From an uncultured Alphaproteobacteria bacterium (lineage in GTDB: Bacteria > Pseudomonadota > Alphaproteobacteria > Rs-D84): a DNA stretch of 64,000 nt. Where the stretch lies: the NCBI GenBank assembly GCA_944389465.1, contig CALXML010000006.1, forward strand, positions 13-64,012. The letters are read 5' to 3'. The translations under genes and the position numbers were made by a program. The notes below the pieces were generated by a model. The model did not search any database. It was not told where the DNA came from and saw only the letters and a program-made list of their open reading frames with translations. Of the stretch, positions 31,712 to 53,144 are shown piece by piece (position 1 is the stretch's first letter; the number at the start of each line of letters is the position of its first letter).

Positions 31712-31787
31712 TCGGGCATAGTTCAGTCGGTAGAACAACGGACTGTTAATCCGTATGTCACTGGTTCGAGTCCAGTTGCCCGAGCCA
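31712..31787 (+). tRNA. tRNA-Asn (anticodon GUU)
   Basis: 76-nt cloverleaf folded by hand: TCGGGCA acceptor, anticodon loop CTGTTAA, ACTGG-TTCGAGT-CCAGT T-arm, encoded CCA. Confidence 0.9.
31743..31787 (+). repeat. attL: 45-bp direct repeat (3' half of tRNA-Asn)
   Basis: CTGTTAATCCGTATGTCACTGGTTCGAGTCCAGTTGCCCGAGCCA is identical to 43461-43505. Confidence 0.9.
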
Positions 31788-34060: not shown

Positions 34061-34214
34061 CCTGTATTTTTATTCAAAACCCCTGATTCTTGCGCCACAC
34101 AAAAGCCAAAACCTGCTTTGGCTCGGCGGGGACGATATTATTCTTGTTATCACTTATATTCCTAGTAACAGATGATAAAAATCTGCAAAACCAATTAACA
34201 CAAGGAGTAAAGTT

Positions 34215-34442: not shown

Positions 34443-34588
34443 ATGGGGCGCCATCGCATTAACGAATGGCACCGATATACACGATGTTAATTATAGTGTT
34501 TATCCCCTAAAAAAACAACAAAAAACAACCCCTGTGCAGTTGTATTTCACCCAAAGATTTCTTTGGCTTCCAACCAAAGGCGGGACAA

Positions 34589-35137
34589 ATGAGTAAAACT
34601 GCTGCAAATATGAACAACAAAACCAAATTCAAGAAGATTAAAGGCGGTTTTGTGATATTCCGTTGGGACGTTATAGATTCACCCGCATTTGCTGATTTGT
34701 CGGGCCGTGCAATAATTGTGTTTGTTTTTCTAAAACGCGAATTCAACGGCAGTAACAATGGTGAAATCCTAATGTCGTGCCGAATGATTAGCAAAAGAAC
34801 ACGAATGTCACGCGCAACAGTAAGTCGTGCATTCGTAGAATTGCAGGTTCACGGTTTTATCAGGATAACCAGACCAGGGTTATATGCTGGTCACACCGCA
34901 ACAACGTGGGAATTAACCGACACATATAACCGTATGACCTTATGTGAAGCCAAAGATTTATGGAAGCGATGGGAACCTGGTATAGATTGCAGGACATTAG
35001 ACCCCGATTATTGCGGTATGGAACCATTAGATGCAATTCAAAATAAAGTCCCACCTATGCAACCAAATGGCAACGACGTGAATCCAACACGCGCTGAACT
35101 GGTTTCACAATCTGACATAGGTGTTTCACAGGTGTGA
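34589..35137 (+). CDS. hypothetical winged-helix-like DNA-binding protein
   Basis: 182 aa. The segment ISKRTRMSRATVSRAFVELQVHGFIRI resembles an HTH. Confidence 0.4.
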   Translation: MSKTAANMNNKTKFKKIKGGFVIFRWDVIDSPAFADLSGRAIIVFVFLKREFNGSNNGEILMSCRMISKRTRMSRATVSRAFVELQVHGFIRITRPGLYAGHTATTWELTDTYNRMTLCEAKDLWKRWEPGIDCRTLDPDYCGMEPLDAIQNKVPPMQPNGNDVNPTRAELVSQSDIGVSQV

Positions 35138-35396
35138 TGATGGCGATGATGTTGGGTGTATTTCTGGTTTCACAAATGGGACATACTATATATAATATAC
35201 CATATAGGGGGCGACAGCCCCCGTCTATCTGCACCTATAAACAACACTTCATCATTCCCCATTATATTCCCCCCCACTATCAGCCCAATACCCCCACCCC
35301 TGTGTTCATTCATCACAGCCCCCCACCACCCCATTTTCGGGTTGCCTTTATTCCCAAAATTGCTGTAAAATATCCGCAGGAAACAAAAGGAAAAAT

Positions 35397-36971
35397 ATGT
35401 CAAAAGAACAAGAACGCGCCGAATTGCACCGTATTATCTGGAAAATAGCCAATGACCTGCGTGGTTCAGTGGACGGGTGGGACTTTAAATCATATGTTTT
35501 GGGTATGTTATTTTATCGTTACATATCTGAAAGAATTGCCACAGACGTGGATAAAGTTGAACATAAAGCAGGAAACACGCAATTCAGTTATGCAAAAATT
35601 TCAGATGCGGATGCAGAGAATGGACGTGCAGATATTGTGGACACATATGGTTTCTTTATTGCACCGTCTGAATTATTCGTGAATGTTCAAAAACGTGCCA
35701 GTACAGACGATAAATTAAATGAAACATTGGCCGCAGTATTCAAACACATTGAAAATTCGGCAATTGGCACCGAAAGCGAAAACGATTTCAAGGGCCTGTT
35801 TGATGACATAGACGTTAATTCTAACAAATTGGGTGCCACGGTTATTGAACGTAACAAGAAACTGGTCAAGATATTGGATGCAATTGCTGATTTGAACCTT
35901 GGTGAAATTCAAGACAGCACCATTGACGCGTTTGGGGACGCATATGAATATTTAATGACAATGTATGCGTCCAATGCTGGTAAATCAGGCGGTGAATTCT
36001 TCACCCCACAAGAAGTATCCAAATTATTGGCAAAAATCACCTTGGTTGACCGTAATCAACCAAATAATATGAAAACCGAAGTGAACAAGGTTTATGACCC
36101 TGCGTGCGGTTCTGGTTCGTTATTGTTGCAATTTGCCAAGGTTCTGGGTCGTGATGCTGTTCACCAAGGGTTCTTTGGCCAAGAAATCAACATAACAACA
36201 TATAACCTGTGCCGTATAAATATGTTCCTGCACGGTATCAATTATTCCAAGTTTGATATTGCCCACGGGGACACATTATTGAACCCCCAACATTGGGATG
36301 ATGAACCATTTGAAGCCATCGTGTCCAACCCACCATACAGCACAAAATGGGAGGGTGATTCAAACCCATTGTTAATAAACGACCCACGTTTTTCACCCGC
36401 TGGGGTTTTGGCACCGAAAAGTGCGGCGGATTTGGCATTCACAATGCATATGTTATCTTGGTTATCAACCGATGGCACTGCGGCAATTGTTGAATTCCCT
36501 GGGGTGTTATATCGTGGTGGCGCAGAAAAGAAAATCCGCCAGTATTTGGTTGATAATAACTTCGTTGATTGCGTTATTCAATTGCCACAAAACCTGTTCT
36601 TTGGGGTAAGTATCGCAACCTGCATCATTGTGTTAAAGAAAAGCAAGAACGATAACCACGTCCTGTTTATTGATGGCAGCGAACAATTCATCCATTCGGG
36701 CAATAAAAACAAATTATCGGACAAAAACATTGAAACATTGCTGAACGCATATATCAAACGTGAAAACGTGGAACATTTCTGCAAATTGGTAAAGAAAGAC
36801 GATATTGCCGAAAATGATTATAATTTATCGGTATCCAGTTATGTAGAAACCAAAGACACACGTGAAGTTGTTGACATAACAGAATTGAACCAGCGCATCA
36901 CAGGTATCGTTGCACGCCAAAACGAACTTCGCACCAAAATTGATGCCATTGTGAAAGATTTAGAGGGCTAA
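35397..36971 (+). CDS. hsdM: type I restriction-modification methyltransferase subunit M
   Basis: HsdM N-terminal domain (IWKIANDLRG), motif I VYDPACGSGSLL, motif IV NPPYS. Confidence 0.9.
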   Translation: MSKEQERAELHRIIWKIANDLRGSVDGWDFKSYVLGMLFYRYISERIATDVDKVEHKAGNTQFSYAKISDADAENGRADIVDTYGFFIAPSELFVNVQKRASTDDKLNETLAAVFKHIENSAIGTESENDFKGLFDDIDVNSNKLGATVIERNKKLVKILDAIADLNLGEIQDSTIDAFGDAYEYLMTMYASNAGKSGGEFFTPQEVSKLLAKITLVDRNQPNNMKTEVNKVYDPACGSGSLLLQFAKVLGRDAVHQGFFGQEINITTYNLCRINMFLHGINYSKFDIAHGDTLLNPQHWDDEPFEAIVSNPPYSTKWEGDSNPLLINDPRFSPAGVLAPKSAADLAFTMHMLSWLSTDGTAAIVEFPGVLYRGGAEKKIRQYLVDNNFVDCVIQLPQNLFFGVSIATCIIVLKKSKNDNHVLFIDGSEQFIHSGNKNKLSDKNIETLLNAYIKRENVEHFCKLVKKDDIAENDYNLSVSSYVETKDTREVVDITELNQRITGIVARQNELRTKIDAIVKDLEG

Positions 36972-36973
36972 TA

Positions 36974-37771
36974 ATGCGTTTAGCAGAAGTGCTATCTTCG
37001 CCACAAACTAATACCTTTGTGCAAGTAGATTCTTTTTTGGACCGAAAACTTGCCCCTGGCAGACAAAAACGTGTTGATATCGGCAGAATCCGTTCAACAT
37101 ATTTTTGTAATCACTGTAATGATTTGATGACTTTTGCCACTCGAGAAAATGGGAAATTATATTGCGTTGGTGTATCTGATACACAGGTAAGCATTGATTG
37201 CGTATTGGAATGTGCAATATGCAAAACACCCGTAAAAAAATGGTTTTTAATAGAGAGCAAAGACAAAATATATTATCCGGCCCCCGAAGTACATATATTA
37301 AAGCAATCAGAACATTTGTCTGACGATGTAATGCTAGAAAACAGATGCCCTGTGTCAATTGGTGTATTATTGGATAAAGCACAACACGCATACTATGAAA
37401 AACTTGGTGCTGGTGCAGCGATTTATTTAAGAAAAATTTATGAACAAATTACAGTTAAAGCCGCAGAAGCAAAAAATATTCCAACAAAAAATGCTAACGG
37501 ACATAGAAAAAAATTTGCTGAATTATTGAAAAATGTAGATGTTATTGCACATATTGTACCACACGAGTTTTCTGCAAATGGCTATAGATTGTTTGGCGAA
37601 TTAAGCGATATTTTGCACAATGATTATGACGAATGTATTGCATTGGAAAAATATAACGATTTGCGTAGATTAATATGTGGCATTTTAGATAACATAAAAA
37701 ACAATGAAGAAATGTTGAAATCCCTTGAACGATTGGGGTGGAACGAGGAGGATAACAATGTCCAGGATTGA
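36974..37771 (+). CDS. DUF4145-like protein embedded in the R-M operon, with N-terminal Cys4 module
   Basis: C-terminal half (LDKAQHAYYEKLGAGAAIYLRKIYEQI...LFGELSDILHN) resembles DUF4145 as I recall it from type I R-M loci. N-terminal CNHC...CAIC pairs suggest a zinc ribbon. Confidence 0.5.
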   Translation: MRLAEVLSSPQTNTFVQVDSFLDRKLAPGRQKRVDIGRIRSTYFCNHCNDLMTFATRENGKLYCVGVSDTQVSIDCVLECAICKTPVKKWFLIESKDKIYYPAPEVHILKQSEHLSDDVMLENRCPVSIGVLLDKAQHAYYEKLGAGAAIYLRKIYEQITVKAAEAKNIPTKNANGHRKKFAELLKNVDVIAHIVPHEFSANGYRLFGELSDILHNDYDECIALEKYNDLRRLICGILDNIKNNEEMLKSLERLGWNEEDNNVQD

Positions 37772-38426
37772 TGAACTTATTGCCAAATATTGCCCGAATG
37801 GTGTTAACCATAAAGAATTGTGGAAATTAACAACCTGGGATAAAAAATTCAACGGTGTTGATAAATCAATGCAACCAAAGGTTATAAAATATCCATATTT
37901 GTTAGCAGCAGATATGAATACATTGGAAACCGAACAAGGCAACGTCAGGTTATTGGCAACAGGTATAGGTGCAGAAAAATATACAACAGAAAAATTAGCG
38001 GGCAGTAACTTATGCGAGGGAGAAATTGTTGCAATCCCCTGGGGTGGAACACCGAATGTAAAATATTATAAAGGAAAGTTTGTCACAGCAGATAACAGAA
38101 TAGCAACCTCCAATGATACAACAATATTAAACAATAAGTTTTTATATTATTATCTTTGTGCAAATTTGGATTTGATAACTTCTTTTTATAGGGGCGCAGG
38201 GATACAACATCCACATATGAAATCCGTGCTAACAATGAAAATCCCTGTTCCGCCACTGGCTGTGCAGGAAGAGATTGTTAATATACTAGATTCTTTCACA
38301 TTATTGGAAGCGGAGCTGGAAGCGGAGCTGGTGGCCAGAAAAAAGCAATATGAACATTATCGTGATAAGTTATTGAATTTTGCTGATATTTCACAGGGGG
38401 GGGGTAAGGACGATGGCACTTTGTGA
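37758..38426 (+). CDS. hsdS: type I R-M specificity subunit, N-terminal half (TRD1 + central conserved region), truncated after a G9 tract
   Basis: MSRIDELIAKYCPNGV start, conserved helix PPLAVQEEIVNILDSF..LEAELEAELVARKKQYEHYRDKLLNF. The frame ends 22 nt after the homopolymer. Confidence 0.85.
   Translation: MSRIDELIAKYCPNGVNHKELWKLTTWDKKFNGVDKSMQPKVIKYPYLLAADMNTLETEQGNVRLLATGIGAEKYTTEKLAGSNLCEGEIVAIPWGGTPNVKYYKGKFVTADNRIATSNDTTILNNKFLYYYLCANLDLITSFYRGAGIQHPHMKSVLTMKIPVPPLAVQEEIVNILDSFTLLEAELEAELVARKKQYEHYRDKLLNFADISQGGGKDDGTL
38307..38330 (+). repeat. perfect 12-bp tandem duplication GAAGCGGAGCTG x2 (EAEL-EAEL) in the hsdS central helix
   Basis: 38307-18 and 38319-30 are identical. Confidence 0.9.
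38396..38404 (+). repeat. G9 homopolymer at the hsdS half-junction
   Basis: Nine consecutive G counted directly. It separates frame 0 (37758-38426) from frame +1 (38380-38949). Confidence 0.95.
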
Positions 38427-38949
38427 AATAGCAAAAATTACAATTGGAGAATTTGTTCATAAAAACAATCAAACATCAGATGGCTTGTATCCTGTTTATA
38501 ACGGTGGAACCAGCAACACAGGTTTTTATAATGAATATAATCACACAAGCAACAATATTATAATAAGTGCAAGGGGAGCAAATGCTGGGTTTGTAAATAG
38601 GGTTTTTGTAAATTATTGGGCAGGAAATAGTTGTTATAGTGTTGATGTGATAGACAGAGAAAACATCAATTGGACGTATATTTATTATGTATTAAAAAAC
38701 AATCAACAAAAACTTATTGGTGAACAACAAACAGGTAGCATCCCTGCTATTTCAAAAAAACAGGTGGAAAATTTTAGAGTTCCTATTCCATCACTTGCTG
38801 AACAGGAACGTATTGTTTCCATATTGGATAAATTTGATGCGTTGGTGAATGATATATCTGATGGTTTGCCTGCGGAAATAAATGCACGTCGCCAACAGTA
38901 TGAGTATTATAGGGATAAATTATTGAACTTTGAACCAATTGCTGCATAA
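38413..38949 (+). CDS. hsdS: type I R-M specificity subunit, C-terminal half (TRD2 + distal conserved region)
   Basis: ATG at 38413 follows TAAGGA. Ends with PSLAEQERIVSILDKFDALV...RRQQYEYYRDKLLNF, parallel to the end of the first half. Confidence 0.8.
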   Translation: MALCEIAKITIGEFVHKNNQTSDGLYPVYNGGTSNTGFYNEYNHTSNNIIISARGANAGFVNRVFVNYWAGNSCYSVDVIDRENINWTYIYYVLKNNQQKLIGEQQTGSIPAISKKQVENFRVPIPSLAEQERIVSILDKFDALVNDISDGLPAEINARRQQYEYYRDKLLNFEPIAA

Positions 38950-38960
38950 AGGAGAAAAAA

Positions 38961-39245
38961 ATGGTCAAAACAAACAAAAAATGGTCTATGAATAAAATAT
39001 TGGTAACAGCATTGTTATCATTGTGTGTTGTTTATACTGGTGTTGGTTTGATAAATCAAGCAATTAAACCAGCACACGCATTTGATAGTTGGGATTTAAA
39101 AAATGCCATAGAAGATGTCGTGTCAGATAAAATATCCGCATATGATTATGATTTTAAATCCGCCGTAAGACGTGTTGTTAATAATAATTGTTCAGTATCG
39201 TGTTATGAATCTTATGGAAGTGTTAGTTGCAGTATAGATTGCTAA
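38961..39245 (+). CDS. small exported/membrane protein (94 aa) inserted between hsdS and hsdR
   Basis: RBS AAGGAGA, N-terminal hydrophobic segment, C-terminal CSVSCYESYGSVSCSIDC. Confidence 0.5.
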   Translation: MVKTNKKWSMNKILVTALLSLCVVYTGVGLINQAIKPAHAFDSWDLKNAIEDVVSDKISAYDYDFKSAVRRVVNNNCSVSCYESYGSVSCSIDC

Positions 39246-39268
39246 ACTTTGAACCAATGGCTGCATAA
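39245..39268 (+). repeat. duplicated hsdS 3' end
   Basis: AACTTTGAACCAATGGCTGCATAA versus 38926-38949 AACTTTGAACCAATTGCTGCATAA (1 mismatch). Confidence 0.85.
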
Positions 39269-39276
39269 CAAAAGGA

Positions 39277-42200
39277 ATGATTATGGTAAATTATAGTGTT
39301 GTTGCAGAAAATAAAGAATCCACCGTTGTGGCACAATATAAATCCACAAATGGCCGTGAAACAACATACCAATCCGAAGCGGAATTGGAAAGGACCTTTA
39401 TCAAACAATTGGAAAAACAGGCATACGAATATCTTCCTATTCACAGCGAAGAAGATTTAATAAACAACCTGCGTCACCAATTGGAATTGCTAAATGACTA
39501 TAAATTTACTGATAACGAATGGGCAAACTTTTTTAAACAAAACATTGCCAACCAGGCCAATGGCATCAAAGAAAAGACCGCAATGTTGCAACGTGACGGG
39601 CATATTCAATTGCTAACACGTGATGATGGCACCACCAAAAACATTTATTTGCTGGATAAAAAAGACATTCACAATAACCGCCTGCAAGTTATCAACCAAT
39701 ATACAACCGATGCTGGGGTTCACGAAAACCGTTATGACGTAACCGTATTGGTTAATGGGTTGCCAATGGTGCATATTGAATTAAAACGTCGTGGGGTTGA
39801 TATCAAACAGGCATTCAACCAAATCAACCGTTATCAACAAGATAGTTTCTGGACAGGTTGCGGATTGTATCAGTATATCCAGATATTCGTTATATCCAAT
39901 GGCACATATACAAAATATTATAGCAACACAACACGTGACCTGCATATAAATGAAGCCAAGAATAATTCAATCACACCACGCAAGAAAACCAGTGACAGTT
40001 TTGAATTCACATCTTGGTGGGCCGATGCCACAAATATGCCAATCACTGACCTGATGGACTTTGCCAAGACATTTTTTGCCAAACACACCATTTTGAACAT
40101 TTTAACCAAGTATTGCGTGTTTAACACCGATGACCACTTGTTGGTTATGCGCCCATATCAAATCGTTGCCACGGAACGAATTTTGAACAAAATCAGAGTG
40201 TCTTCAAATTACAAGAAATATGGCACGATTGATGCTGGGGGGTATATCTGGCACACCACGGGTTCTGGTAAAACGTTGACCAGTTTTAAAACCGCACAAT
40301 TGGCCAGCGCAATGCAGGAAATCGACAAGGTTTTATTCGTTGTTGACCGTCGTGATTTGGATTATCAAACAATGCAGGAATATGACCGTTTTGAAAAAGG
40401 TGCCGCCAACAGTAACACCAGCACCGCTGTATTAAAACGTCAATTGGAAGATTCCAATGCCAGAATTATAATCACAACAATTCAAAAACTGTCCCTGTTC
40501 ATTGAAAAGAATCCAAAGCATCCTGTATTTGATAAACACATTGTTTTGATATTTGACGAATGCCATCGTTCCCATTTTGGTATTGCCCACGAACAAATTG
40601 TCAAAGCATTCAAAAAATATCACCTGTTTGGCTTCACTGGAACACCTATATTTGCACAAAATGCCAGTGCTGGTGGCAAAGCACATTTGAAAACCACAGA
40701 CCAAGCATTTGGGGAACGTCTGCACGTGTATAGCATTGTGGACGCAATTCGTGATAAAAATGTTTTGCCATTCAAGGTTGATTATGTTGGAACAGTGAAG
40801 TGCAAGAACGCAGAAAACATTGAAGATAAAAAGATAAGTGACATTGACCGTGAAAAGGTTTTAATGGCCCCAGAACGCATTTCTAACAACGTAGGATACA
40901 TATTGAACAATTTTAATACAAAGACCAAGCGGAACGATAAATCGTTCTTGTTCAGTATTGTAACAAACGTTGAAAAGGTGGCCAGCGCAAAAGACCGTAA
41001 CAAGATTGAAAAAGTTAAACAAGCAATTCGTATGTCTGGGTTCAATTCTATATTTGCGGTGCAATCCATTCCAATGGCACGTCTGTATTATAACGAATTC
41101 AAAAAGCAGATGGCCGAACACCCTGAAAAAGGGTTAAAGATTGCCACCATATTCAGTTTTGCCGCCAATGGTGACGAATATTCTGATGACGGTATGTTTG
41201 ATGAAAATCCAGAAAACACAGGTGCATTGGATGCAACGTCACGTGAATTCTTGGAATCTGCTATTGACGATTATAACAAAATGTTTGGCACCAGTTATGA
41301 CACGTCCAGCGACAAATTCCAGAATTATTATAAAGACGTTTCACTTCGTATGAAAAACCGTGAAATTGACCTGCTGATTGTGGTTAATATGTTCCTGACA
41401 GGATTTGATGCCACGACATTAAATACGTTGTGGGTTGATAAAAACTTGCGTATGCACGGTTTGTTGCAGGCATTTTCACGCACCAACCGTATATTGAATT
41501 CTATCAAGACACACGGGAACATCATTTGCTTCCGCAATCTTGAAAAAGCAACCAATGAAAGTTTGGCTCTGTTCGGTGATAAAGATGCTGCAGGTGTCGT
41601 GTTATTAAAGACATTTGACGAATATTACAATGGTTATGAAGACAAAGGAAAACAAGTCCCAGGGTATAAAGAATTGGTTGATGAACTGTTGGAAAAATTC
41701 CCAATCGGACAAATGATTCTTGGCGAAACCGCAGAAAAAGAATTCGTGCGTTTGTATAGTGCAATTATCCGTTTAAGCAATGTTCTGGCTTCGTTTGATG
41801 AATTTGCGGATAAACAGATATTAACTGAACGTGATATCCAAGATTATGCCAGTATGTATATTGAAATGCACAGCAAATATATCAGAACCAAGGAAGCAGA
41901 AAAAGAAAATATCAACGACGACTTGGTATTTGAAATGGAACTTATCAAGCAGATAGAAGTGAATATTGACTATATTCTGGCCTTGGTTAAACAGTACCAC
42001 GACAAAAATTGCCAAGACAAAGAAATCAGGGTTTCAATTGAACGTGCAATAGATGCCAGTGTTGATTTGCGTAACAAAAAAGACCTGATTATGCAGTTTA
42101 TAGATTCTTTAACACCAGATTCTGTTGTGGATAGAGATTGGTTGGTGTTCGTGAATGAAGCCAAAATATCTGAATTGAACAAGATTATTGACCAAGAAAA

Positions 42201-42408
42201 TCTGAACAAAGAAGAAACATACACGTTCATCAGGAATTCGTTCCGCAATGGTTCAGTGCAGACAAATGGCCAAGACATTGAAAAGGTTTTGCCACCAATA
42301 TCACGTTTTGATAAATCTGCAAATCGCACCCAGCGCAAACGCAATATCATAACACGTCTGCTGGAATTCTTTGACAGATTCTTTGGCATATCTAATGGTG
42401 AATTTTAA
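39277..42408 (+). CDS. hsdR: type I restriction endonuclease subunit R (type IC-like length)
   Basis: 1043 aa. N-terminal nuclease region (VLVNGLPMVHIELKR), helicase motif I TGSGKT, motif II FDECHRS, motif VI region QAFSRTNR. Confidence 0.9.
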   Translation: MIMVNYSVVAENKESTVVAQYKSTNGRETTYQSEAELERTFIKQLEKQAYEYLPIHSEEDLINNLRHQLELLNDYKFTDNEWANFFKQNIANQANGIKEKTAMLQRDGHIQLLTRDDGTTKNIYLLDKKDIHNNRLQVINQYTTDAGVHENRYDVTVLVNGLPMVHIELKRRGVDIKQAFNQINRYQQDSFWTGCGLYQYIQIFVISNGTYTKYYSNTTRDLHINEAKNNSITPRKKTSDSFEFTSWWADATNMPITDLMDFAKTFFAKHTILNILTKYCVFNTDDHLLVMRPYQIVATERILNKIRVSSNYKKYGTIDAGGYIWHTTGSGKTLTSFKTAQLASAMQEIDKVLFVVDRRDLDYQTMQEYDRFEKGAANSNTSTAVLKRQLEDSNARIIITTIQKLSLFIEKNPKHPVFDKHIVLIFDECHRSHFGIAHEQIVKAFKKYHLFGFTGTPIFAQNASAGGKAHLKTTDQAFGERLHVYSIVDAIRDKNVLPFKVDYVGTVKCKNAENIEDKKISDIDREKVLMAPERISNNVGYILNNFNTKTKRNDKSFLFSIVTNVEKVASAKDRNKIEKVKQAIRMSGFNSIFAVQSIPMARLYYNEFKKQMAEHPEKGLKIATIFSFAANGDEYSDDGMFDENPENTGALDATSREFLESAIDDYNKMFGTSYDTSSDKFQNYYKDVSLRMKNREIDLLIVVNMFLTGFDATTLNTLWVDKNLRMHGLLQAFSRTNRILNSIKTHGNIICFRNLEKATNESLALFGDKDAAGVVLLKTFDEYYNGYEDKGKQVPGYKELVDELLEKFPIGQMILGETAEKEFVRLYSAIIRLSNVLASFDEFADKQILTERDIQDYASMYIEMHSKYIRTKEAEKENINDDLVFEMELIKQIEVNIDYILALVKQYHDKNCQDKEIRVSIERAIDASVDLRNKKDLIMQFIDSLTPDSVVDRDWLVFVNEAKISELNKIIDQENLNKEETYTFIRNSFRNGSVQTNGQDIEKVLPPISRFDKSANRTQRKRNIITRLLEFFDRFFGISNGEF

Positions 42409-42428
42409 TCAAAGGGGGAAATTGACAG

Positions 42429-42671
42429 ATGCCGTATGATTGTTCACTTAATTCTGCACACGCAGTGAACGAAAAATATAAACGCGAAGAAGCCGCGAAA
42501 CAGGTGCAATTGGTCAAAGAACAGAAAAAAGATGCCTATGATGCAGAAATGAAATCATTGGCTGAACAGAATTTGCAGGCCGCGATTAAAAACCAGCACA
42601 TCGCAAATAAAACTTTCTGGGTTGCTGTGGTTTCTGGTATAATTGGGTTGATATCACTGATATTCAAATAA
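42429..42671 (+). CDS. small tail-anchored membrane protein (80 aa)
   Basis: Charged coiled N-terminal part and a C-terminal TM helix (FWVAVVSGIIGLISLIF). Confidence 0.4.
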   Translation: MPYDCSLNSAHAVNEKYKREEAAKQVQLVKEQKKDAYDAEMKSLAEQNLQAAIKNQHIANKTFWVAVVSGIIGLISLIFK

Positions 42672-42684
42672 AGGGTTAATAGAG

Positions 42685-43125
42685 TTGGGTGAAATAATAA
42701 AATTTTTACAACAAAATGGTGATTGGATTGCTGGTTTGGGAATGGTGTTTTTTGCAGGCGTCCAAGTTTGGTTGATGTTTTCACAAAATCGTCAGCAGTT
42801 GTTATTAAAACGTCTAGAATTGCTCCAACAATTTGATGAAATAGCAATCAAGTTTGACGGTTCAATAGAAACAGCAATAGAAATCCAAGAATGGTTAAGC
42901 AAACACCAAAGTGTTTTTGCTGTATTATTAAAAAAGAAAGATGTTAAAACGGTGGAAAATTTGTTTAATTTTTTGATGGGCATTCGTAAATCCCCGAAAA
43001 CCAACGAAACACAAGTGCTTATACAACGTGTTAAAGATTTCAATATTATTGCCAATAAAGTCACGCTGTGTTTAGGTAAAGCCCGTTATGGAATGACAAA
43101 AGAAAACTTGATTAAAATCAAATAA
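42685..43125 (+). CDS. small N-terminally anchored membrane protein (146 aa)
   Basis: TTG start, TM helix WIAGLGMVFFAGVQVWLMF. Last gene before attR. Confidence 0.4.
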   Translation: MGEIIKFLQQNGDWIAGLGMVFFAGVQVWLMFSQNRQQLLLKRLELLQQFDEIAIKFDGSIETAIEIQEWLSKHQSVFAVLLKKKDVKTVENLFNFLMGIRKSPKTNETQVLIQRVKDFNIIANKVTLCLGKARYGMTKENLIKIK

Positions 43126-43460
43126 AAAGCAAACACATTATAACCCAGTGGGTATCACCCCACCCATAGATGTCACGTTAAATTCTGGTGCCACATAAAA
43201 AGAATGCTTTTTTTATTGTATCGCTGTTTGTAATAAACTATAATAATGCGTGAAACCAGACGGCAATATCCCAAAAAACATATTGTCGTTGAAACAGTGA
43301 AACCAAAGGACTAACAAAAGAACAAACAATTTTCTTGGGATACCAGTGGGATTTATCAAATCACAATTTATAAAAATTGCTGAAACTTGATAAAACATAA
43401 CCTGTTGATTTATGTGTTATATTGTGTGTTGGTATCTTATGTTTTTTTATCTGGCCAATG

Positions 43461-43505
43461 CTGTTAATCCGTATGTCACTGGTTCGAGTCCAGTTGCCCG
43501 AGCCA
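43461..43505 (+). repeat. attR: 45-bp copy of the tRNA-Asn 3' half
   Basis: Identical to 31743-31787. Confidence 0.9.
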
Positions 43506-43582: not shown

Positions 43583-43595
43583 CAGCCATAGGTTG
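43583..43595. repeat. solitary array-type box
   Basis: ATTCAGCCATAGGTTGAATTT (core CAGCC-ATA-GGTTG), same family as the 45.4-51.2 kb array. Confidence 0.6.
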
Positions 43596-44132: not shown

Positions 44133-45308
44133 TTATCTATTAAAAAAGTCTTTTACTTTATCCAGTGCGTTTTGCACAAAAGACTTCTTTTGTGCCAGAC
44201 CATGGACTTTTTTTGTTGCTGTTGTCAAATTCTGTACTTGTTTGGTATAGAAATAATCATAAAAGGCTTCAATGGGCACGCCAATTCCACCATTATTATC
44301 CGCAGAAATAAATACACCGGTTATACCCAAATGTTTCAGTTGTTCCTGTATACCCTGTGTTGTTTCCGCGCCGGTTCGGGCCGCCAGCTGGCTGGGTACG
44401 GGGGAAAACCAAACCACTTTATCTTCTAGGGTTGAATTAGCCATCAAATCTGTTTTGCGAATTTTCCCCAATGTGTCAAGTTCGTGAATCCGTAATGCGC
44501 CACTTGTAATTTCCAGAAAATCTTTTGGTGCGGCCCGCCATGCATCAATTATTGCCGGTAAATATATTATATGATTTCTGTAGTATTGATATGGACTGCG
44601 TTCATTATATGGCATTCCTTCTGCAAATTCACTGTTAGCAGATTGTAATAATGCGTCTATGTCCGCGGCGGGCAATTCCATATTTAATGCGCGCTGTTTA
44701 AATATTGCCGCAGGATACTTTTTCTCTAACATTTGGCAAACCAAATCCAATTCTGGATATGGATTTTTATTCATGTCCGGCATTTTATTCAACCAACCGG
44801 CGTCAGAAATTCCCTGTAACGGATACCATTTGCCAGACGCGATTCCGTATTCTGCTTCCTTGCCAGATAATCCGGACGATACATAAAAAGGCAAACGATG
44901 ACCATTTATAATTACAACAGCAATCGCGCGGCCCCCACGACCAACAATGCCAGACACTTTGCCGGACTTGGTCGGGATTAATTCTAAATAGACATTGTTA
45001 CCATGAACTTTGCCTATGGGCTGGGTTTCCGTCAAATCTGTAACACGCCCCCACATAATATTTTCTATGCGATTTTTATCTAATTGATTTTGCAAAACAA
45101 TAACCGACACGTTACCGTCCGGATATTCCAGACATGTATAGATAACATTTGGTCGTTGATTTAATTCGCCGGCAATTCGGTGGTATTCACTATCGTTGGC
45201 GCATTTGTGCTCGTAATATTTTACACCAAACTTATTTTTATCCGCAGGAACAAAATTAAAATCAGCACCTGATATACGATTTAATTTTTTTAATTGTGTT
45301 TGTTGCAT
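44133..45308 (-). CDS. hypothetical protein (391 aa) abutting the repeat array
   Basis: Long clean ORF with no signal peptide and no recognisable domain. Confidence 0.6.
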   Translation of the reverse strand: MQQTQLKKLNRISGADFNFVPADKNKFGVKYYEHKCANDSEYHRIAGELNQRPNVIYTCLEYPDGNVSVIVLQNQLDKNRIENIMWGRVTDLTETQPIGKVHGNNVYLELIPTKSGKVSGIVGRGGRAIAVVIINGHRLPFYVSSGLSGKEAEYGIASGKWYPLQGISDAGWLNKMPDMNKNPYPELDLVCQMLEKKYPAAIFKQRALNMELPAADIDALLQSANSEFAEGMPYNERSPYQYYRNHIIYLPAIIDAWRAAPKDFLEITSGALRIHELDTLGKIRKTDLMANSTLEDKVVWFSPVPSQLAARTGAETTQGIQEQLKHLGITGVFISADNNGGIGVPIEAFYDYFYTKQVQNLTTATKKVHGLAQKKSFVQNALDKVKDFFNR

Positions 45309-45358
45309 ATCGTATCCTTTGCGTCAATTATACTATATTTTCGCAAAGATATCTATAC

Positions 45359-45520
45359 AATTGGCGCGGGACGACCGCACCGAACAGTACCTATTATTTA
45401 TGGCGCACGCCACAACACACGGCACAACGCGCGGCAATAAAACATACGCGGTGATTGGATGAACCGCCGGCCCCAATAATGATTGGCGGCGCGTTGACGC
45501 GCCTGTGACGCCGCAAGACA
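45359..45520. repeat. GC-rich terminal module, left
   Basis: AATTGGCGCGGGACGACC...GGCGCGTTGACGCGCC... is the reverse complement (with small indels) of 51044-51194. Confidence 0.85.
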
Positions 45521-48225
45521 CAACCAGTGGTTGAATACACGGTTGATTTTCTGCCGGATATAACAGCCTATGACTTTGCATTTTTTCAAATCACGATTAC
45601 CGCAACACAACCACAGGTTGAATATTTTTAAAAATTCAACCAAATATGCAGATTACATCCGAACGGTTAATGTTGAATATGTTGTATTTTTGCCATAATG
45701 CTTGCGATATTAATACCAAATACAACCGATGGTTGAATTTATTGCGACGCTCAACCAAAATAATTGGACGATTATTGAATTAAAAGAACGATTTCGTTAA
45801 TGCCCCAAAATGGCAGGACAAAACACAACCTGTGGTTGAATATACTGCAACATTCAACCAATAATGACGCTGGCGAACCCCGAGCCACGAGAAGCGTTTT
45901 CAGCAACGCCCAAGATTAACAAGACTAAACACAACCTACGGTTGATTTTGTTGTAATATTCAATTAAGTATAGATAGCAAGTAATTGTATAGGCAGTTGT
46001 TTTAATATTTTGCTACAGTACCAAGATTAAATACAACTTGTGGTTGTGTTTATTGCAGTATTCAATCAAAAAATAATGTGCCAATTATTGGATTAAGAGA
46101 ACAAATTCATCAATGTCTGAAACAGCGTGGAAAAATACAACTTACGGTTGAATTTGTTGTAACATTCAACTAATGGCAGTGCGTTAGACTATTAGATTAT
46201 GCCCCCCAAGTTCAGTAACGTTTGGATTATAACCGTTAAACACAACCTGTAGTTGAATAATTTATAAAATTCAACCAAATACGCAGCTCTATGCCAAAAT
46301 GCCTAACAGAAATTACATTATATTTTGCTACAACCAGTACAATATTAGCATCAAATACAACTTCTGGTTGAATTTATCATAGCGTTCTGCTAACGACGGG
46401 CTCTGTCATTAAATTACAGATAGCGTTTTGCAATAATGTCCAGATTATCAAGAATCAATACAATCAGAGGTTGAATATTTTTAACAATTCAACTAAATAT
46501 ACAGGTTTATGTCCAAATAATTAGTGAAAAATATGTTATATTTTGTTGTCATAAGCGCAATTTTAACGCTAAATACAGCCTACGGTTGATTATATTATAA
46601 TATTCAATTAATCATAGGCGACAAGTGATTAGATTACAAACAGTAATTTTACCAACGTCCTATATTATCAAGCTCAAATACAACCTACGGTTGAAATCGT
46701 TGATATATTCAATTAAATACACTCCCAGCCAATTGCGCGGATTACCAGCATCAATTTCAACCTACGGTTGTATTTGATACATTCCGCACACCGACAGATA
46801 AAATGCAAACGGACACGATTTCAACTATAAATTCAACCTGTGGTTGTATTGCTCTTTGCATTTACGGACTTCTAATGAAATGCTAGACAAATGTATTTCG
46901 CAGGGCAATTAATAGACAATCCCCGACATTATGCATAATAATTCAACCTACGATTGTATTTAACCTTGTGTTTCTAGTATAATTCCAACCAGATAAACGT
47001 AATTAACTACTAACTTACCGAATGTAATTTTTTACTCATGGATACAACCTGTGGATGTATTACATTTGCACAAGTGCAGACGAGCGGATAATACGAGAAT
47101 TTAAACAAAGTTTCAACCCTTGGTTGTATTGGGCTTTGCGTTTGTAATGTTTTACTTAATATAACAAGATAAGTTGCAAACAATCGTAATTTTGATAAAA
47201 TACGATAATTTTTTACAACAATACAACCTATGGTTGAATTTGTTTTGATGTTTCCAGTATTTGCATCTATAAGGTTGGCAAACGTCTATAATCAGCGGCA
47301 AAATTGTTGACAACTCTCATTAGCGACATTTGCCGGTTTTGTCGCCATAAATTCAACCATAGGTTGTATTGTGGTTCGGGTTTTCCGCAATTTTTCTGTG
47401 CCGCCCCCAAAAGCATCAACCAAGCGACTACACCGCACAATGTAACTATTTTAAAAGTTCAATCCACATTAGGCACAATGACCAAATACAACTATGAGTT
47501 GAATATTACTTCTGATTTCTGCCGATTGTGCGAGCGTACAAGTTACACCGTCCTGTGTGATGGAATAATGTTTTTTCTGTTCTCCAATTGTCTGTTACGA
47601 AATTTGAACACTTTCGGAAGCCCGACCAAGTAAATTGCTATCTAAATGACTGATATGCATCGCCATGTGTGTAATATCAATACTAAATACAACTTGTGAT
47701 TGAATTTGCTAACGTATTCAACCAGTTATAACACGGTCAGCACATCCGGACTTTTAATGACGATTTGATAAAACATCTAGCTTAACCCACATGAATACAA
47801 TCTATAGTTGTAAGAAATACAAATTTCTATTCTTTGTTTTGTCGCGGGGACACATTCTGTCACAATCCGATTTTTTCTAAATTATCGGTGCTCAATCACT
47901 GTATTTTTATTCTTGCATATATGATGGCGTACACGGGACAATTTTTAGTCTTTTTGACTAGAAATATTTACAATATTCAACTACTGGTTGATTGCTAGTG
48001 CTGAAATCCGGTACTATTTTAGAAAACAATTAATGCGTTAAGAGCCAATACTTTTACAGAATGTAAATATACTACCTTGGATTGAAAAGTTTAATAAATT
48101 CTATCACTGGTTGAAGCGCATAGCTAAATATCAGCGTTTTTAACAAATTAATAAAATACAAAATTTTAAAAATGCTGCGTACAATGATGGGTTGCAACTC
48201 TGAAAAAACGCTAAATACTAACATA

Positions 48226-48248
48226 AAATTCAACCAATGGTTGAATTT
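48226..48248. repeat. perfectly palindromic 23-bp box near the array centre
   Basis: AAATTCAACC-AAT-GGTTGAATTT. Confidence 0.85.
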
Positions 48249-51043
48249 TATTATTCTGTCTAGTTTTTTATTGGGGCTTTGATAACCAAAACATCAAAAG
48301 GTTGCTTGCTAGTAATCAGCAGGACAAAAAACGTAAAATATTAAACGTAATTTCAACTGTGAGTTGAATTTTATTGGCTTGTCTTGTCTTTTTTTGATGA
48401 ATATAAAAAAGTATTCAACCATAGGTTGATTTTACGCCCAATATTGTAGTTGTTATCATAGATTTAGAACCAAACACTCGGATGGCGCGCACTTATGTAA
48501 ATTGGGGTGAAGTGTTTAACAAATACAACCACAGGTTGAATTTTGGTGTAAAATACTGCGGACTACCGTTAATTATCGTGTCAATCAAAGAATACATGTG
48601 TCCGACGAACATCCAGCAAAGCGTAATAAATTCAATACGAAATTCAACCAGAGGTTGTATTAGATTCTTTTCTATTGTACATAGGTGACCTTATAAGATG
48701 TATGCAAGTGGAATTTTATACTAAAACCAACCCTAGGTTGAATGAGCTGGCGTTAATGCAGGATATTGGTGGGGTGCTATCCGTAATCCAACAATCAATG
48801 GCATTATTATAAGTTGAATATATTTGTAAATTCAACCGTCGGTTGTATTTATGTCTTATTATCTCATATAAATAATGTTTTATAATGATTGTCCAACGGC
48901 TGTTGCAGATAATGATACAGCATATGTAGGCTGAACAAATTTTATTGTCATTACAGGTTGAATTAATGTCTGCAAAATCGCCTGTACCGCCATTTACAAT
49001 TATGTTTTGTTTGCTATTAGTCTTCCTTTGGTGGTGTTTTGGGGTGCACGGCTAAAAAATGTAACATCCACAACCACAGGTTGAAATTTCTGCTGTAAAT
49101 CTGCACTGTTTCCGAAGTTATCCCCAATAAGTCAATAATTGGGTATATGGGTTTTGATTAATTGAATAATACGATAGTTTCAATCATGGGTTGAATCTGT
49201 GTGCTTAATTTTGCGTTTTACAGCGGAGTATTGAATTATGAACAATATTTTTCAGCTATGCTGAATTTGTGGTGACGATATATGTTGGTGGTTGAATAAA
49301 TGACAAAAAAACAACCTTTGGTTGAATATTTATCCGTATTTTATAGACGTGTCGGATAAATGCTTTAAAAATACGAATTATAGATTAATCATTGGTGCTG
49401 TATATTTGTTGTCAAAATATCGGTAAAAATACCGAATGCTGATTATATACCAGAAGAAATACTAGGTAATAACAGACAAAAACACCATACAAAATTTAAC
49501 CATAGGTTGTACCCATGAGTAATAAATTACATTCGGTAAGTTATTAATAGTTTTAATTATAGTTATATGGTTTGTGTTATGTCAAAACACGGGGGTGAAT
49601 ACAACCATAGATTGAATCGTTGCGCAAAATCCCGCAAATTTACTTATTAAAATTTCTAATAATTCAGACAACTCATTTGCAACCAATGTAATTAAAGTAA
49701 AATACAACCACAAGTTGAATTATGACGCTATTTCTATTATAAGTTGATCATTTGTGTTAAGGTGTCTGAAGTGGAGAAACTTACATCAAAATCAACCCTA
49801 GATTGAATTTAGTGTTGGTATTTGTTTGTATAGAGCATTTGATTGTAGGAAACGGTTAGATTTTTCCAGATTAAACTTTTGTCATGTATAACTACTTGAA
49901 CTCTCAATCACTCTTGTTATTAATATTAAAGTTGCCAAAACACTGAACGCAATACAACCACAGGTTGAATTTATATTTAAAATCGTGTCTGTTTGCACTT
50001 TATCTGTCGGTGTGCGGAATGTATTAAATGCAACCGTAGGTTGAAATTAATGCTGGTAATCTGCGCGGTTGGCAGGAAATGCATTTGGTTGAACATATCA
50101 ATAAATTCAGCCGTAGGTTGTATTTGGGCTTGGTGATATAGGGTATTAGTAAAATTACTGTTTATAATCTAATCACTTGCCATCTATGATTAATTGAATA
50201 TTATAATAAATTCAACCACAAGTTGTATTTAAACCTGATAAGAAAGGAGTTTCAGAAATTGTAGATTATAATCCATCTATTGATAGTGTTGTCATTGGTT
50301 GAATGTTCTGTCAAAATCAACCACAGGTTGTATTTTTATGCCGTTGTTTCAGGCATTGATGAACTTGTTCTCTTAATTCAATAATTGGCACATCGTTTTT
50401 AATTGAATATTGCAACAAAATCAACCATGGGTTGTATTTTTGTGCCGTTGTTTCAGGTATTGATGAACCTGTTCTCTTAAGCCAATAATTATCCGCATCG
50501 TTTTTTTGATTGAACCTCGTGATAAATGCAACTACAGATTGTGTTTAATACTGGTAATCTAGGATGTTAACAAAAATTGTTAAACCAACTGTTGATAGTG
50601 TCGTCATTGGTTGAATGTTCTGTCAAAATCAACCACAGGTTGCATTTTGTCTTGATAATTTAAGGTATTATAAAAATCACTGTTTGCAATCTATTAATTT
50701 AATTGAATATTATGCAAAATTCAACCACAGGTTGTGTTTTATCTTGCTGTTTTGGGGCATCAATGAAATCGTTCTTTTAATTCAATAATCGGCCAATTAT
50801 TTTTTAATTAAATATCGTAATAAATTCAACTATCGGTTGTATTTAATATAAATATCGCAAGTGTTATGGCAGAAACGCAACATATTCAACATTAACCGTT
50901 CGGATGCAATCAGCATATTTAGTTGAATTTTTAAAAACATTCAACCTGTGGTTGTGTTGTGGTAATCGTTATTTGAAAAAAAACGCAAAGTCATAGGTTA
51001 TTACATCCGGCGGAAAATCAACCGTATATTCAATCTGTGATTG

Positions 51044-51194
51044 TGTCTTGCGGCGTTACAGGCGCGTCAACGCGCCGACAATCATTATTACGGGCCAGCG
51101 GTTCAGCCAATCGCCACGTATGTTTTATTGCCGCGTGTTGTGGCGTGCGTCATAAATAATAGATACTGCTCGGGCCGGTCGTCCCGCGCCAATT
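51044..51194. repeat. GC-rich terminal module, right
   Basis: Reverse complement of 45359-45520, with an approx 11-nt deletion and scattered substitutions. Confidence 0.85.
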
Positions 51195-51304
51195 TGGTGG
51201 CGGGATTATAAAATGTACCATATATTTAAATGCCAATTCGTCATACGACTTCTTTCACTTGTCTTGTTATAAATATCGTGTCGGCGGGATTTTAGCCGTT
51301 TGTT

Positions 51305-51317
51305 CAACCGGTGGTTG
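51305..51317. repeat. solitary perfect box outside the inverted repeat
   Basis: TGTTCAACC-GGT-GGTTGGAT. Confidence 0.6.
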
Positions 51318-51600
51318 GATTTGCCTTGGGTATATTCATTTGCGGGCGGGTGGGGCGGTCACGTTGTGGCCTGATATTTCGCGGTTATTGGAAATCGCAT
51401 AGTCATTATTGCATAATCATTATATTAAATATCGTCTATTCCCCATCGTTTGCGTTCGTTGTGTTGCCAGTGGCGGGGCGTGCCGTATGTGTCGGGACGT
51501 CACATCCATAAATTTGCCAAAACGCCCAAATGCCAGTGGCCACGTTGTCCATATATCATAATAATTCATCGCCTTGATTTTTCTGTGTTAATTTTTCATC

Positions 51601-51629
51601 TTGCTTTGCGGTACGATGCAGGATAACAT
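51601..51629 (+). promoter_or_regulatory. sigma70-like promoter of the Cys-rich gene
   Basis: TTGCTT - 17 nt - TAACAT, in the same position relative to the leader as at 5079-5107. Confidence 0.45.
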
Positions 51630-51866
51630 AATTTATGTTGATGGGTGTTCCGTCAATGGGGTGTGAGAACCCGTGCATACGCGTCGGAATATTGGGACGG
51701 TGCGGTTGTGCCGACCGTGTGGTATTACGACGAAAAATAAACTCCTGATATTTGGTCAGGAGGGTCGTGAATATAAAATAAGCGACACAATTCGTATGAT
51801 TGTTCTCAACCTCCTGACCACCAAGTTTTTGGTGGTTTTTCGTTAAGAAAAAACAGGAGTTTGAAA
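51630..51866 (+). promoter_or_regulatory. conserved structured 5' leader (copy 2) with intrinsic terminator
   Basis: Hairpin 51638-51656, hairpin 51742-51762, terminator ACCACC-N8-GGTGGTTTTT at 51817-51840. Confidence 0.55.
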
Positions 51867-52448
51867 ATGAAAAAAACATTATATATAGCACCGCTTATTG
51901 CGGGCTTGTGCAACAGTGCTGTTGCTTGGACGGCTGGTCAACAGTGTGCCGCCGATTATGATATGTCCACATATTATCAATGCGATTGCCCAATAGAAGA
52001 CAGATTGGCCAGTGGCTGGATTGTTGGGCCGTGTGATTCTTATGAACAAATCTGGTGTTATGATACGAATGGCGTTTGTGCCGGTGACGGTGGCGAGGGT
52101 GCATGTGGGGTATGCCACTGCACAGATTCTGTTGGTGATTGGGAAAAAATGACAGACCCGTTTATCGGCGAATTTATGCAACGCGTTATCACGACGTACA
52201 GTCATTCAGATAATTATTATATATGCAAGGCATCCACCCAGCGTGAAAAAGCATGTTTGGCTGGGTATTATAAATCTGGTACTTCTGGATTAAACTGTCG
52301 CTTGTGTCCGTCATTTAATGGTGTGGCCGGCGCATCAGATATTGGTGCCACCAGCATAACAGATTGTTATATAGCATCCGGCACAATATTGTCAGATACC
52401 ACCGGAACGTACACATATACACGTGATTGTTATTACAGTAACCAGTAA
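51867..52448 (+). CDS. secreted Cys-rich protein (193 aa)
   Basis: ATG at 51867 lies 7 nt after AGGAG. Signal peptide MKKTLYIAPLIAGLCNSAVA and 19 Cys. GYYKSGTSGLNCRLCP and the C-terminal TGTYTYTRDC motifs are shared with 4127-4408. Confidence 0.65.
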   Translation: MKKTLYIAPLIAGLCNSAVAWTAGQQCAADYDMSTYYQCDCPIEDRLASGWIVGPCDSYEQIWCYDTNGVCAGDGGEGACGVCHCTDSVGDWEKMTDPFIGEFMQRVITTYSHSDNYYICKASTQREKACLAGYYKSGTSGLNCRLCPSFNGVAGASDIGATSITDCYIASGTILSDTTGTYTYTRDCYYSNQ

Positions 52449-52502: not shown

Positions 52503-53144
52503 TTACAGTCCAAATTTGTATGCCGCGCCAATGTATAATTCTGTGGCGTCAACCTCTACTGAAATATGGTTGCCGGCGTCGTCACTCATTTCAATATCGC
52601 CATAGTTTTGATATTTTAATCCTATGTTTAAATCTATGCGTGTGTTTAATGCAAAGTTTACACCAACCATTGCGCCCCACGACATATCAGCGGTTGAATC
52701 AGACATATGCATTCCGCCACCAACATCGCCCCAAATGCCTGAAACACCAATGCCCAATCCGGCATATGGTTCAACCGCGCCACCAAATTGCTGGTACACG
52801 TACACATTCAGCATATTTGACCATATGTTAAAATCATAATCATTGCCGTATTTTTCTTCGCCGCCATATGTGTATGCTGTTTCAAATTCTATTTTTATAT
52901 GGTCTGTTAATCTGTTTCCGATATTCAGGCCAAAACCAAAACTGTCATCGCGCAATTTAGTATCGTTGCCATCTTTAAATTCAACACCAAATGCCAAGTG
53001 TTCATTTTGGTGCAATCTGATACCGACATAGTTATCACGACGTGGTGCATTGCCATAATCATAACCATATCCATAATCATCGGCCACAGCGGGCAGGGCA
53101 GACAATCCCAAAATGCTGCATAATATAATAGACAGTTTTTTCAT
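52503..53144 (-). CDS. outer-membrane beta-barrel protein (small OMP/porin family)
   Basis: Signal peptide, alternating aromatic/Gly beta-strand pattern, C-terminal ..AAYKFGL. Confidence 0.7.
   Translation of the reverse strand: MKKLSIILCSILGLSALPAVADDYGYGYDYGNAPRRDNYVGIRLHQNEHLAFGVEFKDGNDTKLRDDSFGFGLNIGNRLTDHIKIEFETAYTYGGEEKYGNDYDFNIWSNMLNVYVYQQFGGAVEPYAGLGIGVSGIWGDVGGGMHMSDSTADMSWGAMVGVNFALNTRIDLNIGLKYQNYGDIEMSDDAGNHISVEVDATELYIGAAYKFGL

Follow-up and report, generated by a model that had tools for sequence, protein, structure and literature searches.

About 50 copies of a new palindromic box form a conserved mosaic array at one locus of uncultured gut Alphaproteobacteria

What is a 5.8-kb region without genes, in which one short palindrome recurs about 50 times, doing in an otherwise chromosomal neighbourhood? 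Such a region lies at 45359–51194 of the window, a 64-kb stretch of DNA from the metagenome-assembled genome of an uncultured gut or rumen alphaproteobacterium, and its palindrome is a 13-bp box, CAACC-N3-GGTTG. Our analysis indicated that the structure is genuine: a palindromic recognition box not described before is repeated in a mosaic array, which is conserved and specific to one locus and extends NIME/BIME-like systems to a new phylum. The first-pass annotation, made from the letters of the window, had found no credible open reading frame (ORF) there, and this was borne out. Within 45309–51860 no ORF reached 110 aa; the longest had 109 aa and a TTG start, and a Pfam scan of it and of two further in-array ORFs gave no match. 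The G+C content of the array was 31–35%, compared with about 40% in the surroundings. We rejected a decayed repetitive protein gene as the source, as judged by units in both orientations, 32% G+C and the lack of ORFs in any of five species.

To count the boxes, we scanned the window with the exact pattern and with mismatches. CAACCNNNGGTTG had 27 exact matches, every one within 45521–51317, whereas 100 dinucleotide shuffles of the window yielded 0.10 on average and never more than 2. Inside the region there were 17 matches with one mismatch and 11 with two, six of the latter being kept as boxes because of their flanks; outside it, four one-mismatch and 27 two-mismatch matches were at chance level. 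Thus, 49 boxes were retained in 45359–51194, close to the 52 of the first-pass annotation, and two outliers lay at 51305 (perfect) and 43583 (one mismatch). The 26 coordinates that the annotation had listed for perfect boxes were all correct, and the 27th, at 51305, falls just past the end that it gave to the array. No perfect box occurred in the 58 kb of the window outside the locus, in keeping with a box restricted to this place, and a single one, in contig L259, turned up in the roughly 70 kb surveyed outside the arrays of relatives with boxes.

The full box has a consensus of about 23 bp, AAATWCAACC-(RYR/YRY)-GGTTGWATTT. The asymmetric flanks seen in the first pass are real and are due to a single variable position in the half-site, AAAT[T/A]CAACC. 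They give each box an orientation: '+' prevails in the left arm of the array and '-' in the right one, and the middle has both. The gap was constant at 3 bp, so placed that the half-site centres are about 11 bp apart. Its three bases alternated as RYR or YRY (for example ACA, TGT, TAC, GTA, ATA and TAT) in 87 of 112 boxes (78%), against 27% in the background (p = 1e-8 and 2e-15 in the two largest arrays), a rule that points to sequence-dependent deformability in duplex DNA. The predicted hairpins of most window boxes were weak, at -3.1 kcal/mol for the core and -4.3 kcal/mol for the common A/T-type 23-mer, which favours recognition as duplex DNA. Taken together, the conserved half-site sequence, the fixed 3-bp gap, the spacing of about 11 bp between centres, the pyrimidine-purine-rich centre and the weak hairpins argue for a dimeric protein that would bind the box as a duplex and read its flexible centre indirectly.

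Two further properties that had been ascribed to the boxes were re-examined. Compensatory changes that keep the dyad were found at 47489 and 48354, as described, and in a third box at 51031; they were not significant (p ~0.1), because nearly all arm changes are GC-to-AT transitions, only six positions are possible and three of six double changes were paired. Box spacing had modes near 60–80, 100–120 and 130–140 bp. The distances between boxes showed no 10.5-bp periodicity (Rayleigh p = 0.5), and the description of the array as 'phased' had to be dropped; the 105-bp mode is explained by duplicated unit families.

At a larger scale, the region is a large imperfect palindrome (Table 1). Its arms, 45359–46852 and 49949–51194, are complementary at 87–91%, and it is bounded by 162-bp GC-rich inverted ends, of which the left segment was found only in the lineage of the window and its close relative L251. 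The first 12 boxes of the left arm mostly have the '+' flank orientation (ATACAACC-N3-GGTTGAAT), and most of them are followed 11–12 nt downstream by a third half-site, ATTCAAYY; the last two lie inside the inner inverted repeat I1 in '-' orientation. The right arm begins with two '+' boxes inside I1, and its remaining boxes are mostly '-' (ATTCAACC-N3-GGTTGTAT). Spacer families A, B and D populate the arms, forming units of about 102–115 bp in the left one, whereas central spacers are nearly all unique. The right arm also contains a 104-bp tandem duplication at 50312–50505.

This structure is genuine and not an assembly artefact. Contigs from three other samples (L123, L124 and L125) carried 2.1–3.7 kb of the array at 99.8–100% identity, with matches that begin at the adjacent 391-aa gene; all three contigs end inside the array. 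A 77-kb contig of L251 contained the full array (6.3 kb, 47 boxes) between the same genes for a Cys-rich protein, an outer-membrane protein (OMP) and a PBP on one side and the same 39x-aa gene on the other. The array affects metagenome assembly: three of the five contigs that carry the locus (four from the window species, one from L251) break inside it.

Boxes were found in five related species, with 4 to about 50 in each. The half-site profile AAATWCAACC and the 3-bp gap were identical across five arrays (the window, L251, L253, L126 and L080). After the boxes were masked, the window spacers matched no array of another species, and just two short high-scoring segment pairs were found between any species pair. 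Half-site sequence, beyond pairing, has thus been kept across species with unalignable spacers, which supports the earlier proposals that the box is the site of a dimeric protein and that the palindrome itself is the selected unit. The relatives are arranged in other ways. In L253, 34 boxes or more lie 3' of its 39x-aa gene, in direct higher-order repeats with alternating box orientation and recurring linkers. L080 (about 25 boxes) and L126 (11 boxes) have mostly unique spacers and a tRNA-Asn gene within a few kb, and L120 has four single boxes among small ORFs near tRNA-Asn. Since L253, L080 and L126 are built otherwise, the large palindrome is a feature of the window lineage, and the box is the shared element.

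Three observations concern these contigs individually. A 149-aa ORF that the gene caller placed inside the L126 array (9500–9961) is full of 'FNHRL', the translated box, and is almost certainly spurious. At 5323–5360 of L120, about 55 bp from the box at 5413, lies an inverted partial copy of the 5' half of tRNA-Asn, which suggests a past rearrangement or island turnover at that locus. Beside the L080 array, a Cys-rich 123-aa ORF is unrelated to the 195-aa Cys-rich protein of the window.

Wider searches gave few relatives. With a two-box pattern in the genome collection, the matches listed were mostly unrelated repeats, and only L080 among them was related. Scans of metagenome and viral collections returned coding repeats and single boxes at chance level, with no related arrays, and a BLAST search of the array against phage and plasmid collections gave no match, which argues against spacers taken from known mobile DNA. 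No paper was found in the literature with the motif string. Two clusters of other kinds came up. A metagenome contig (L222), otherwise unrelated and poor in ORFs, has six TTCAACC-N3-GGTTGAA boxes at 2048–2163 with an iteron-like spacing of 20–23 bp; this may be another use of the motif or a chance match. In L070 (OZ244188.1, a metagenome-assembled genome (MAG) with 33% G+C), 15 near-identical longer palindromic units (GTGAAACAACCAGCGGTTGTTTCAC plus a conserved tail) lie at 4241–6900, spaced roughly 100–276 bp apart, and belong to a family unrelated to the box.

We then compared the window with L251, whose flanking genes share 98–99% nucleotide identity with it and differ at 6.2% of 4-fold sites. 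Array divergence was patchy, from 0 to 40% per 100 bp. In a segment of low divergence (47798–48870), spacers and arms each differed at 2.2%, a spacer level like that of the flanking genes, while central triplets differed at 18.5% (5 of 27; Fisher p = 5e-4 against spacers), several of the triplet changes being two-base. In a segment of high divergence (46571–47797), spacers differed at 19.7%, arms with their 3-bp flanks at 8.9% (p = 2e-4 against spacers) and triplets at 30.3% (10 of 33). The central triplet mutates about 8 times faster than the adjoining DNA, yet is constrained, and the arms are protected where the spacers have diverged. Loop inversion was rejected as the origin of the triplet changes, as no reverse-complement flip was seen.

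Larger rearrangements separate the two arrays as well. L251 carries the central 3.5 kb (46571–50125) in the opposite orientation, and the inversion breakpoints fall within the inner inverted repeats of 283 bp. The locus is a natural 6-kb bacterial palindrome whose centre flips between strains. The left-arm units of L251 are nearer to the right arm of the window than to its left arm, indicating gene conversion between arms. There were also unit-level indels, including a 31-bp deletion between direct CAACCA half-sites. Cassette exchange was rejected, as patch boundaries did not fall consistently at boxes and divergent patches often begin mid-spacer.

These results lead us to a tentative reading, to which we give a little less than an even chance: the region is a non-coding NIME/BIME-like mosaic array, and the box is the site of a dimeric sequence-specific protein that acts at the dyad centre. 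The region would be a functional analogue of the Neisseria NIME arrays and, in one relative, would resemble the BIMEs of E. coli, with about 50 box copies separated by 49–240 bp of fast-evolving filler. The protein would bind the box as a dimer, one subunit on each half-site, with half-site centres about one helical turn apart, and, at the flexible triplet in its middle, would distort or cut the DNA. If the protein acts at the dyad centre again and again, and similar units also undergo homologous recombination of the ordinary kind, the outcome would be what is seen: a centre with rapid turnover, units that are gained, lost or duplicated, gene conversion between the two arms, a flipped middle segment and mosaic divergence between strains. 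Three parts of this scheme are inferred: the reading of the box by a protein dimer, its action on the centre, and the role of this action as the driver of the array's dynamics. For the host, the array may be no more than tolerated in the variable region beside tRNA-Asn. The excess of change at the dyad suggests distortion, nicking or strand exchange there, and unit turnover, inversion and mosaicism agree with this.

Several points weigh against it. No partner candidate emerged, and RAYT, GIY-YIG/Ssn, IS110/Piv and IntI genes are absent from the window. A spacer of 3 bp, an odd number, is at variance with the way in which serine or tyrosine recombinases are known to cleave; a DNA invertase is encoded 27 kb from the array, and its repeats are unrelated to the box. 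The box is confined to a single locus without dispersal, and the flanking genes, at 98–99% identity, are not extra-diverged, unlike those of NIMEs. Fast change of the centre could come from transient replication hairpins without any protein. In addition, all comparisons use metagenome assemblies, with a single closely related pair.

A protein might also bind the boxes and do nothing more. They would then be a passive platform of duplex operators for a dimeric regulator or architectural protein (for centromere-like partition, nucleoid organisation, silencing or titration), with no DNA processing and with ordinary repeat instability. The conserved half-site sequence and spacing, the RYR/YRY centre and the restriction to one locus all fit, as do single boxes upstream of genes: the one at 51305 precedes the Cys-rich gene, and the L120 box at 9720 lies 280 bp before a 394-aa gene. 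Palindromes of the form 5-N3-5 are typical of small dimeric binders, such as MatP on matS and the C proteins of restriction-modification (R-M) systems on their boxes. A function that relies on dosage or geometry, however, should constrain copy number, orientation and spacing, and we found 4 to about 50 boxes, unconserved orientation and spacing, and no helical phasing. Nor would a site that is merely bound be expected to change 8-fold more at its dyad centre, with two-base events among the changes, and cumulative GC skew has no ori/ter switch at the locus. We regard such a platform as plausible but unlikely. A replication origin or terminus was rejected for the same lack of a skew switch, and the fork trap suggested in the first-pass annotation fares no better, box orientation being unconserved in the relatives.

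Another proposal of that annotation was an array of small structured RNAs. Each unit might be a small transcription unit, with a promoter and a short RNA ending at a box hairpin, or the boxes might serve as bidirectional intrinsic terminators. A terminator-like scan did find 40 sites against 4.2 expected, an excess that arises because boxes precede T-rich flanks on both strands. In several left-arm units, the TTGAAT of the right box arm and an A/T-rich hexamer 18 nt downstream resemble a -35/-10 pair; promoter-like sites, however, were not enriched overall (32 vs 30.5 expected). An Rfam 15 scan of 45200–51900 gave nothing at the gathering threshold or at E <= 1, 13 aligned family-B units showed no covariation (covariation term -0.82), and the spacers cannot be aligned between species. 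Genes in the rest of the window do not end at a box, and the box is therefore not the general terminator of this genome. An RNA or terminator function is thus very unlikely.

A further reading is based on transposons. The array could be a nest of miniature inverted-repeat transposable elements (MITEs), about 100-bp units with 8-bp terminal inverted repeats (GGTTGAAT...ATTCAACC), each box being two abutting ends around a 3-bp target duplication. Unit orientation would explain the four box types (A/T, T/A, T/T and A/A), and the L253 units would get matching ends. Abutted junctions of inverted repeat, 3 bp and inverted repeat are known from tandems of IS3, IS21 and IS30. This reading, however, needs every insertion to land exactly against the end of its neighbour. 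About 200 kb examined contained neither a transposase nor a lone unit with everted half-sites; spacers in the central part are mostly unique and do not belong to element families; and the RYR/YRY rule and the hypermutation of orthologous triplets do not fit target-site duplications. We consider it extremely unlikely.

The genes around the array are chromosomal and include those for RNase E/G, RecG, AckA, LigA, PBP1 and ComM. Its closest neighbour, the 391-aa protein, had homologs only in gut or rumen MAGs labelled 'Alphaproteobacteria bacterium', with an invariant motif, PFYVSSGxSGK. Searches of Pfam, NCBIfam and PHROG assigned it to no family, and PDB sequences gave no match. Its AlphaFold model, although confident (pLDDT 88), had no PDB fold match at E < 0.01, and its sole significant structural match (E = 5e-7) was part of a 1233-aa phage protein annotated LT_GEWL. 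Boxes accompanied homologs of >=63% identity, and homologs at <=60% identity had none within 15–21 kb; we do not claim the protein as the partner of the box. It is one candidate partner under a bolder reading that we hold to be improbable: a bacterial 'satellite', present at one locus and conserved in the lineage, whose roughly 50 dyad sites would be a loading platform for a new family of DNA-binding or DNA-cutting proteins and would serve chromosome organisation, segregation or programmed local recombination. If true, this would be a new protein–repeat partnership like RAYT–REP or Ssn–NTS, with another fold and mechanism.

On the other side of the 391-aa gene, the island inserted in tRNA-Asn encodes a tyrosine integrase (32121–33194), a DnaD/replication-O-like protein (34589–35137) and a type I R-M system (35397–42408) with a pair of half-size hsdS genes that overlap. 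If the island is left out, tRNA-Asn is followed by the 391-aa gene and then by the array. Two links to the island were tried and rejected. The 45-bp att repeat bears no resemblance to the box, which speaks against an origin of the box in the tRNA-Asn att site, and array-bearing relatives entirely without the island speak against a tie to the type I R-M system.

Elsewhere in the window lies the gene for a Hin/Gin-type DNA invertase of 198 aa (17989–18585; PHROG 'DNA invertase', E = 4e-44). After it come inverted repeats of 17 bp (18591–18607 and 18704–18720) that enclose 96 bp just upstream of a glycosyltransferase/RgpF cluster. This locus (17989–18760) looks like a phase-variable promoter switch for surface polysaccharide.

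Table 1. Coordinates of the array, its parts and neighbouring features in the window
Feature	Position	Strand	Remarks
tRNA-Asn gene	31712..31787	+	Box region a few kb away in every relative with the tRNA visible
Integrative island in tRNA-Asn, 11.8 kb	31712-43505		Direct repeats of 45 bp (tRNA 3' half) at its ends; attR 43461-43505
Outlying one-mismatch box CAGCCATAGGTTG, ATT/AAT flank	43583..43595		78 bp beyond the island attR; 3' side of the 391-aa gene
391-aa gene, no fold match	44133..45308	-	Adjoins an array in the four closest relatives, on either side
Left 162-bp terminal segment, 58% GC	45359..45520		Inverted copy of 51044-51194; terminates in the A-type half-site ACACAACC
Left arm	45521..46852	+	14 boxes
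Inner inverted repeat I1, left copy, 283 nt	46570..46852		87% complementary to 49949-50231; strain-inversion breakpoint within
Central part	46853..49948		23 boxes, mixed orientation; spacers 49-240 bp, nearly all unique
Inner inverted repeat I1, right copy	49949..50231		
Right arm	49949..51043	-	12 boxes
Right GC-rich terminal segment	51044..51194		85% identity to the reverse complement of 45359-45520
Outlying perfect box	51305..51317		544 bp upstream of the Cys-rich secreted-protein gene
Cys-rich secreted 195-aa protein	51861..52448	+	No family match; 99% conserved in L251
Opacity-family OMP	52503-53144	-	After the Cys-rich gene; surface-protein neighbours on the far side of the array

Finally, we compared the array with known repeat systems. 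Three were rejected on architecture. In contrast to CRISPR, with its near-identical direct repeats of 23–50 bp and its unique, similarly long spacers, the repeats are palindromic with variable centres and lie in both orientations, the spacers of 49–240 bp are partly paralogous, close strains differ by substitutions and an inversion and not by additions at one end, and scans of the window found no cas genes. An integron cassette array lacks support, as there is no IntI and the only tyrosine integrase belongs to the tRNA-Asn island; moreover, attC sites have at least 55 bp with R and L boxes and bound ORF cassettes, whereas the boxes have 19–23 bp and the units are free of ORFs. Sites of Hin/Gin invertases, as in shufflons, are 26 bp long with a 2-bp crossover and lie beside the invertase; the box centre has an odd 3 bp.

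Centromere arrays (F sopC and R1 parC) and the matS sites of MatP resemble the array in being repeated dyad-symmetric sites for a dimeric binder, and matS is itself a 5-N3-5 palindrome. Centromere repeats, however, are tandem and regular, with about 10–12 copies beside par genes, whereas the boxes are irregular in spacing and orientation and have no adjacent par-like gene; matS sites are dispersed over a macrodomain, and the boxes occupy a single locus.

REP/BIME–RAYT repeats share with the array their oriented imperfect palindromes in mosaic clusters, a likeness strongest in L253 with its alternating orientation and recurring linkers. They differ in that REPs are dispersed at hundreds of extragenic sites, carry a 5' GTAG and rarely form clusters of more than a dozen, none of which applies here. 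A REP-flanked RAYT gene is usually present and was not seen, and no Y1 (IS200/IS605-like, PF01797) transposase was matched among 49 window ORFs scanned. The NTS/SRM repeats of Ssn nucleases are oriented palindromes clustered around particular genes in host-associated bacteria, including Alphaproteobacteria, and their recognition depends on sequence plus structure, with loop identity non-essential (PMC11893778). The stems here are shorter and A/T-rich, and the SRM pattern HGTCWYN(0-2)YYVSBRHN(0-5)WNVSBRGN(0-2)RNCYNB had 0 matches on either strand of the window. A tblastn search for a small GIY-YIG (cd10448) gene, with a GIY-YIG protein of the clade as query, gave nothing at E < 1 in the window and ten related loci, and Pfam GIY-YIG had no match among the window ORFs scanned.

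The boxes might nevertheless belong to a hairpin family of one of these two types, formed in single-stranded DNA and spread or cut by an HUH transposase or a GIY-YIG nuclease encoded elsewhere. Palindromes oriented by their flanks, the BIME-like alternation in L253, a downstream third half-site that permits an alternative hairpin, a hypervariable centre in the place of the loop, and outer ATTC...GAAT ends that match those of dRS3 are consistent with this. Many uncharacterised repeat–nuclease pairs, including some in alphaproteobacterial symbionts, have been described (PMC11893778). The published SRM pattern was unmatched in the window, however; no GIY-YIG homolog was found in the window or the ten related loci, and no Y1 transposase in the window scans. 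The boxes are undispersed, with 0 in the 58 kb flanking the locus; their stems have little length or strength, and in most window boxes the extended stem contains a mismatch owing to the A/T-type asymmetry. For a triloop, an RYR/YRY rule would make no evident sense. We judge a hairpin family to be quite unlikely.

The closest parallel is the NIME arrays of Neisseria, in which 20-bp inverted repeats (dRS3) flank families of RS units of about 50–150 bp and arrays are syntenic with a variable number of repeats; according to the 2007 genome paper on strain FAM18, none had been seen outside Neisseria (PMC1797815). The dRS3 repeats were first proposed as recombinase sites (PMC1797815) and later found to include targets of a GIY-YIG single-strand nuclease (PMC11893778); the enzyme that reads NIME repeats was identified only in 2025. 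In both systems, a palindrome has conserved arms and a variable centre (ATTCCC-N8-GGGAAT in NIMEs, ATTCAACC-N3-GGTTGAAT here), and the repeats separate non-coding units that form sequence families (19–214 bp in NIMEs, 49–240 bp here). Both form long arrays at syntenic positions, with repeat numbers that differ between strains (here 4 to about 50 among relatives), and lie beside surface-protein genes; in both, G+C content rises at the repeat and dips in the unit. The differences make the present array an analogue and not a member: the repeat is not dRS3 and the host is not Neisseria; a single locus was found in all sequence sampled, compared with hundreds; the genes on either side show no hypervariability; neither a phage recombinase nor an Ssn nuclease lies close by; and in the window lineage the whole array is a large palindrome. 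The first-pass statement that no named repeat fits thus holds for sequence membership, which fails in the known families, and not for architecture, which closely parallels the NIME arrays and is BIME-like in one relative. A NIME-like architecture has arisen with an unrelated box in uncultured gut Alphaproteobacteria, and its protected arms and constrained, hypermutable centre predict a specific protein acting at the dyad. Identifying this predicted protein could add a repeat–enzyme pair, and possibly a sequence-specific DNA tool, to those known, and could explain how such arrays grow.

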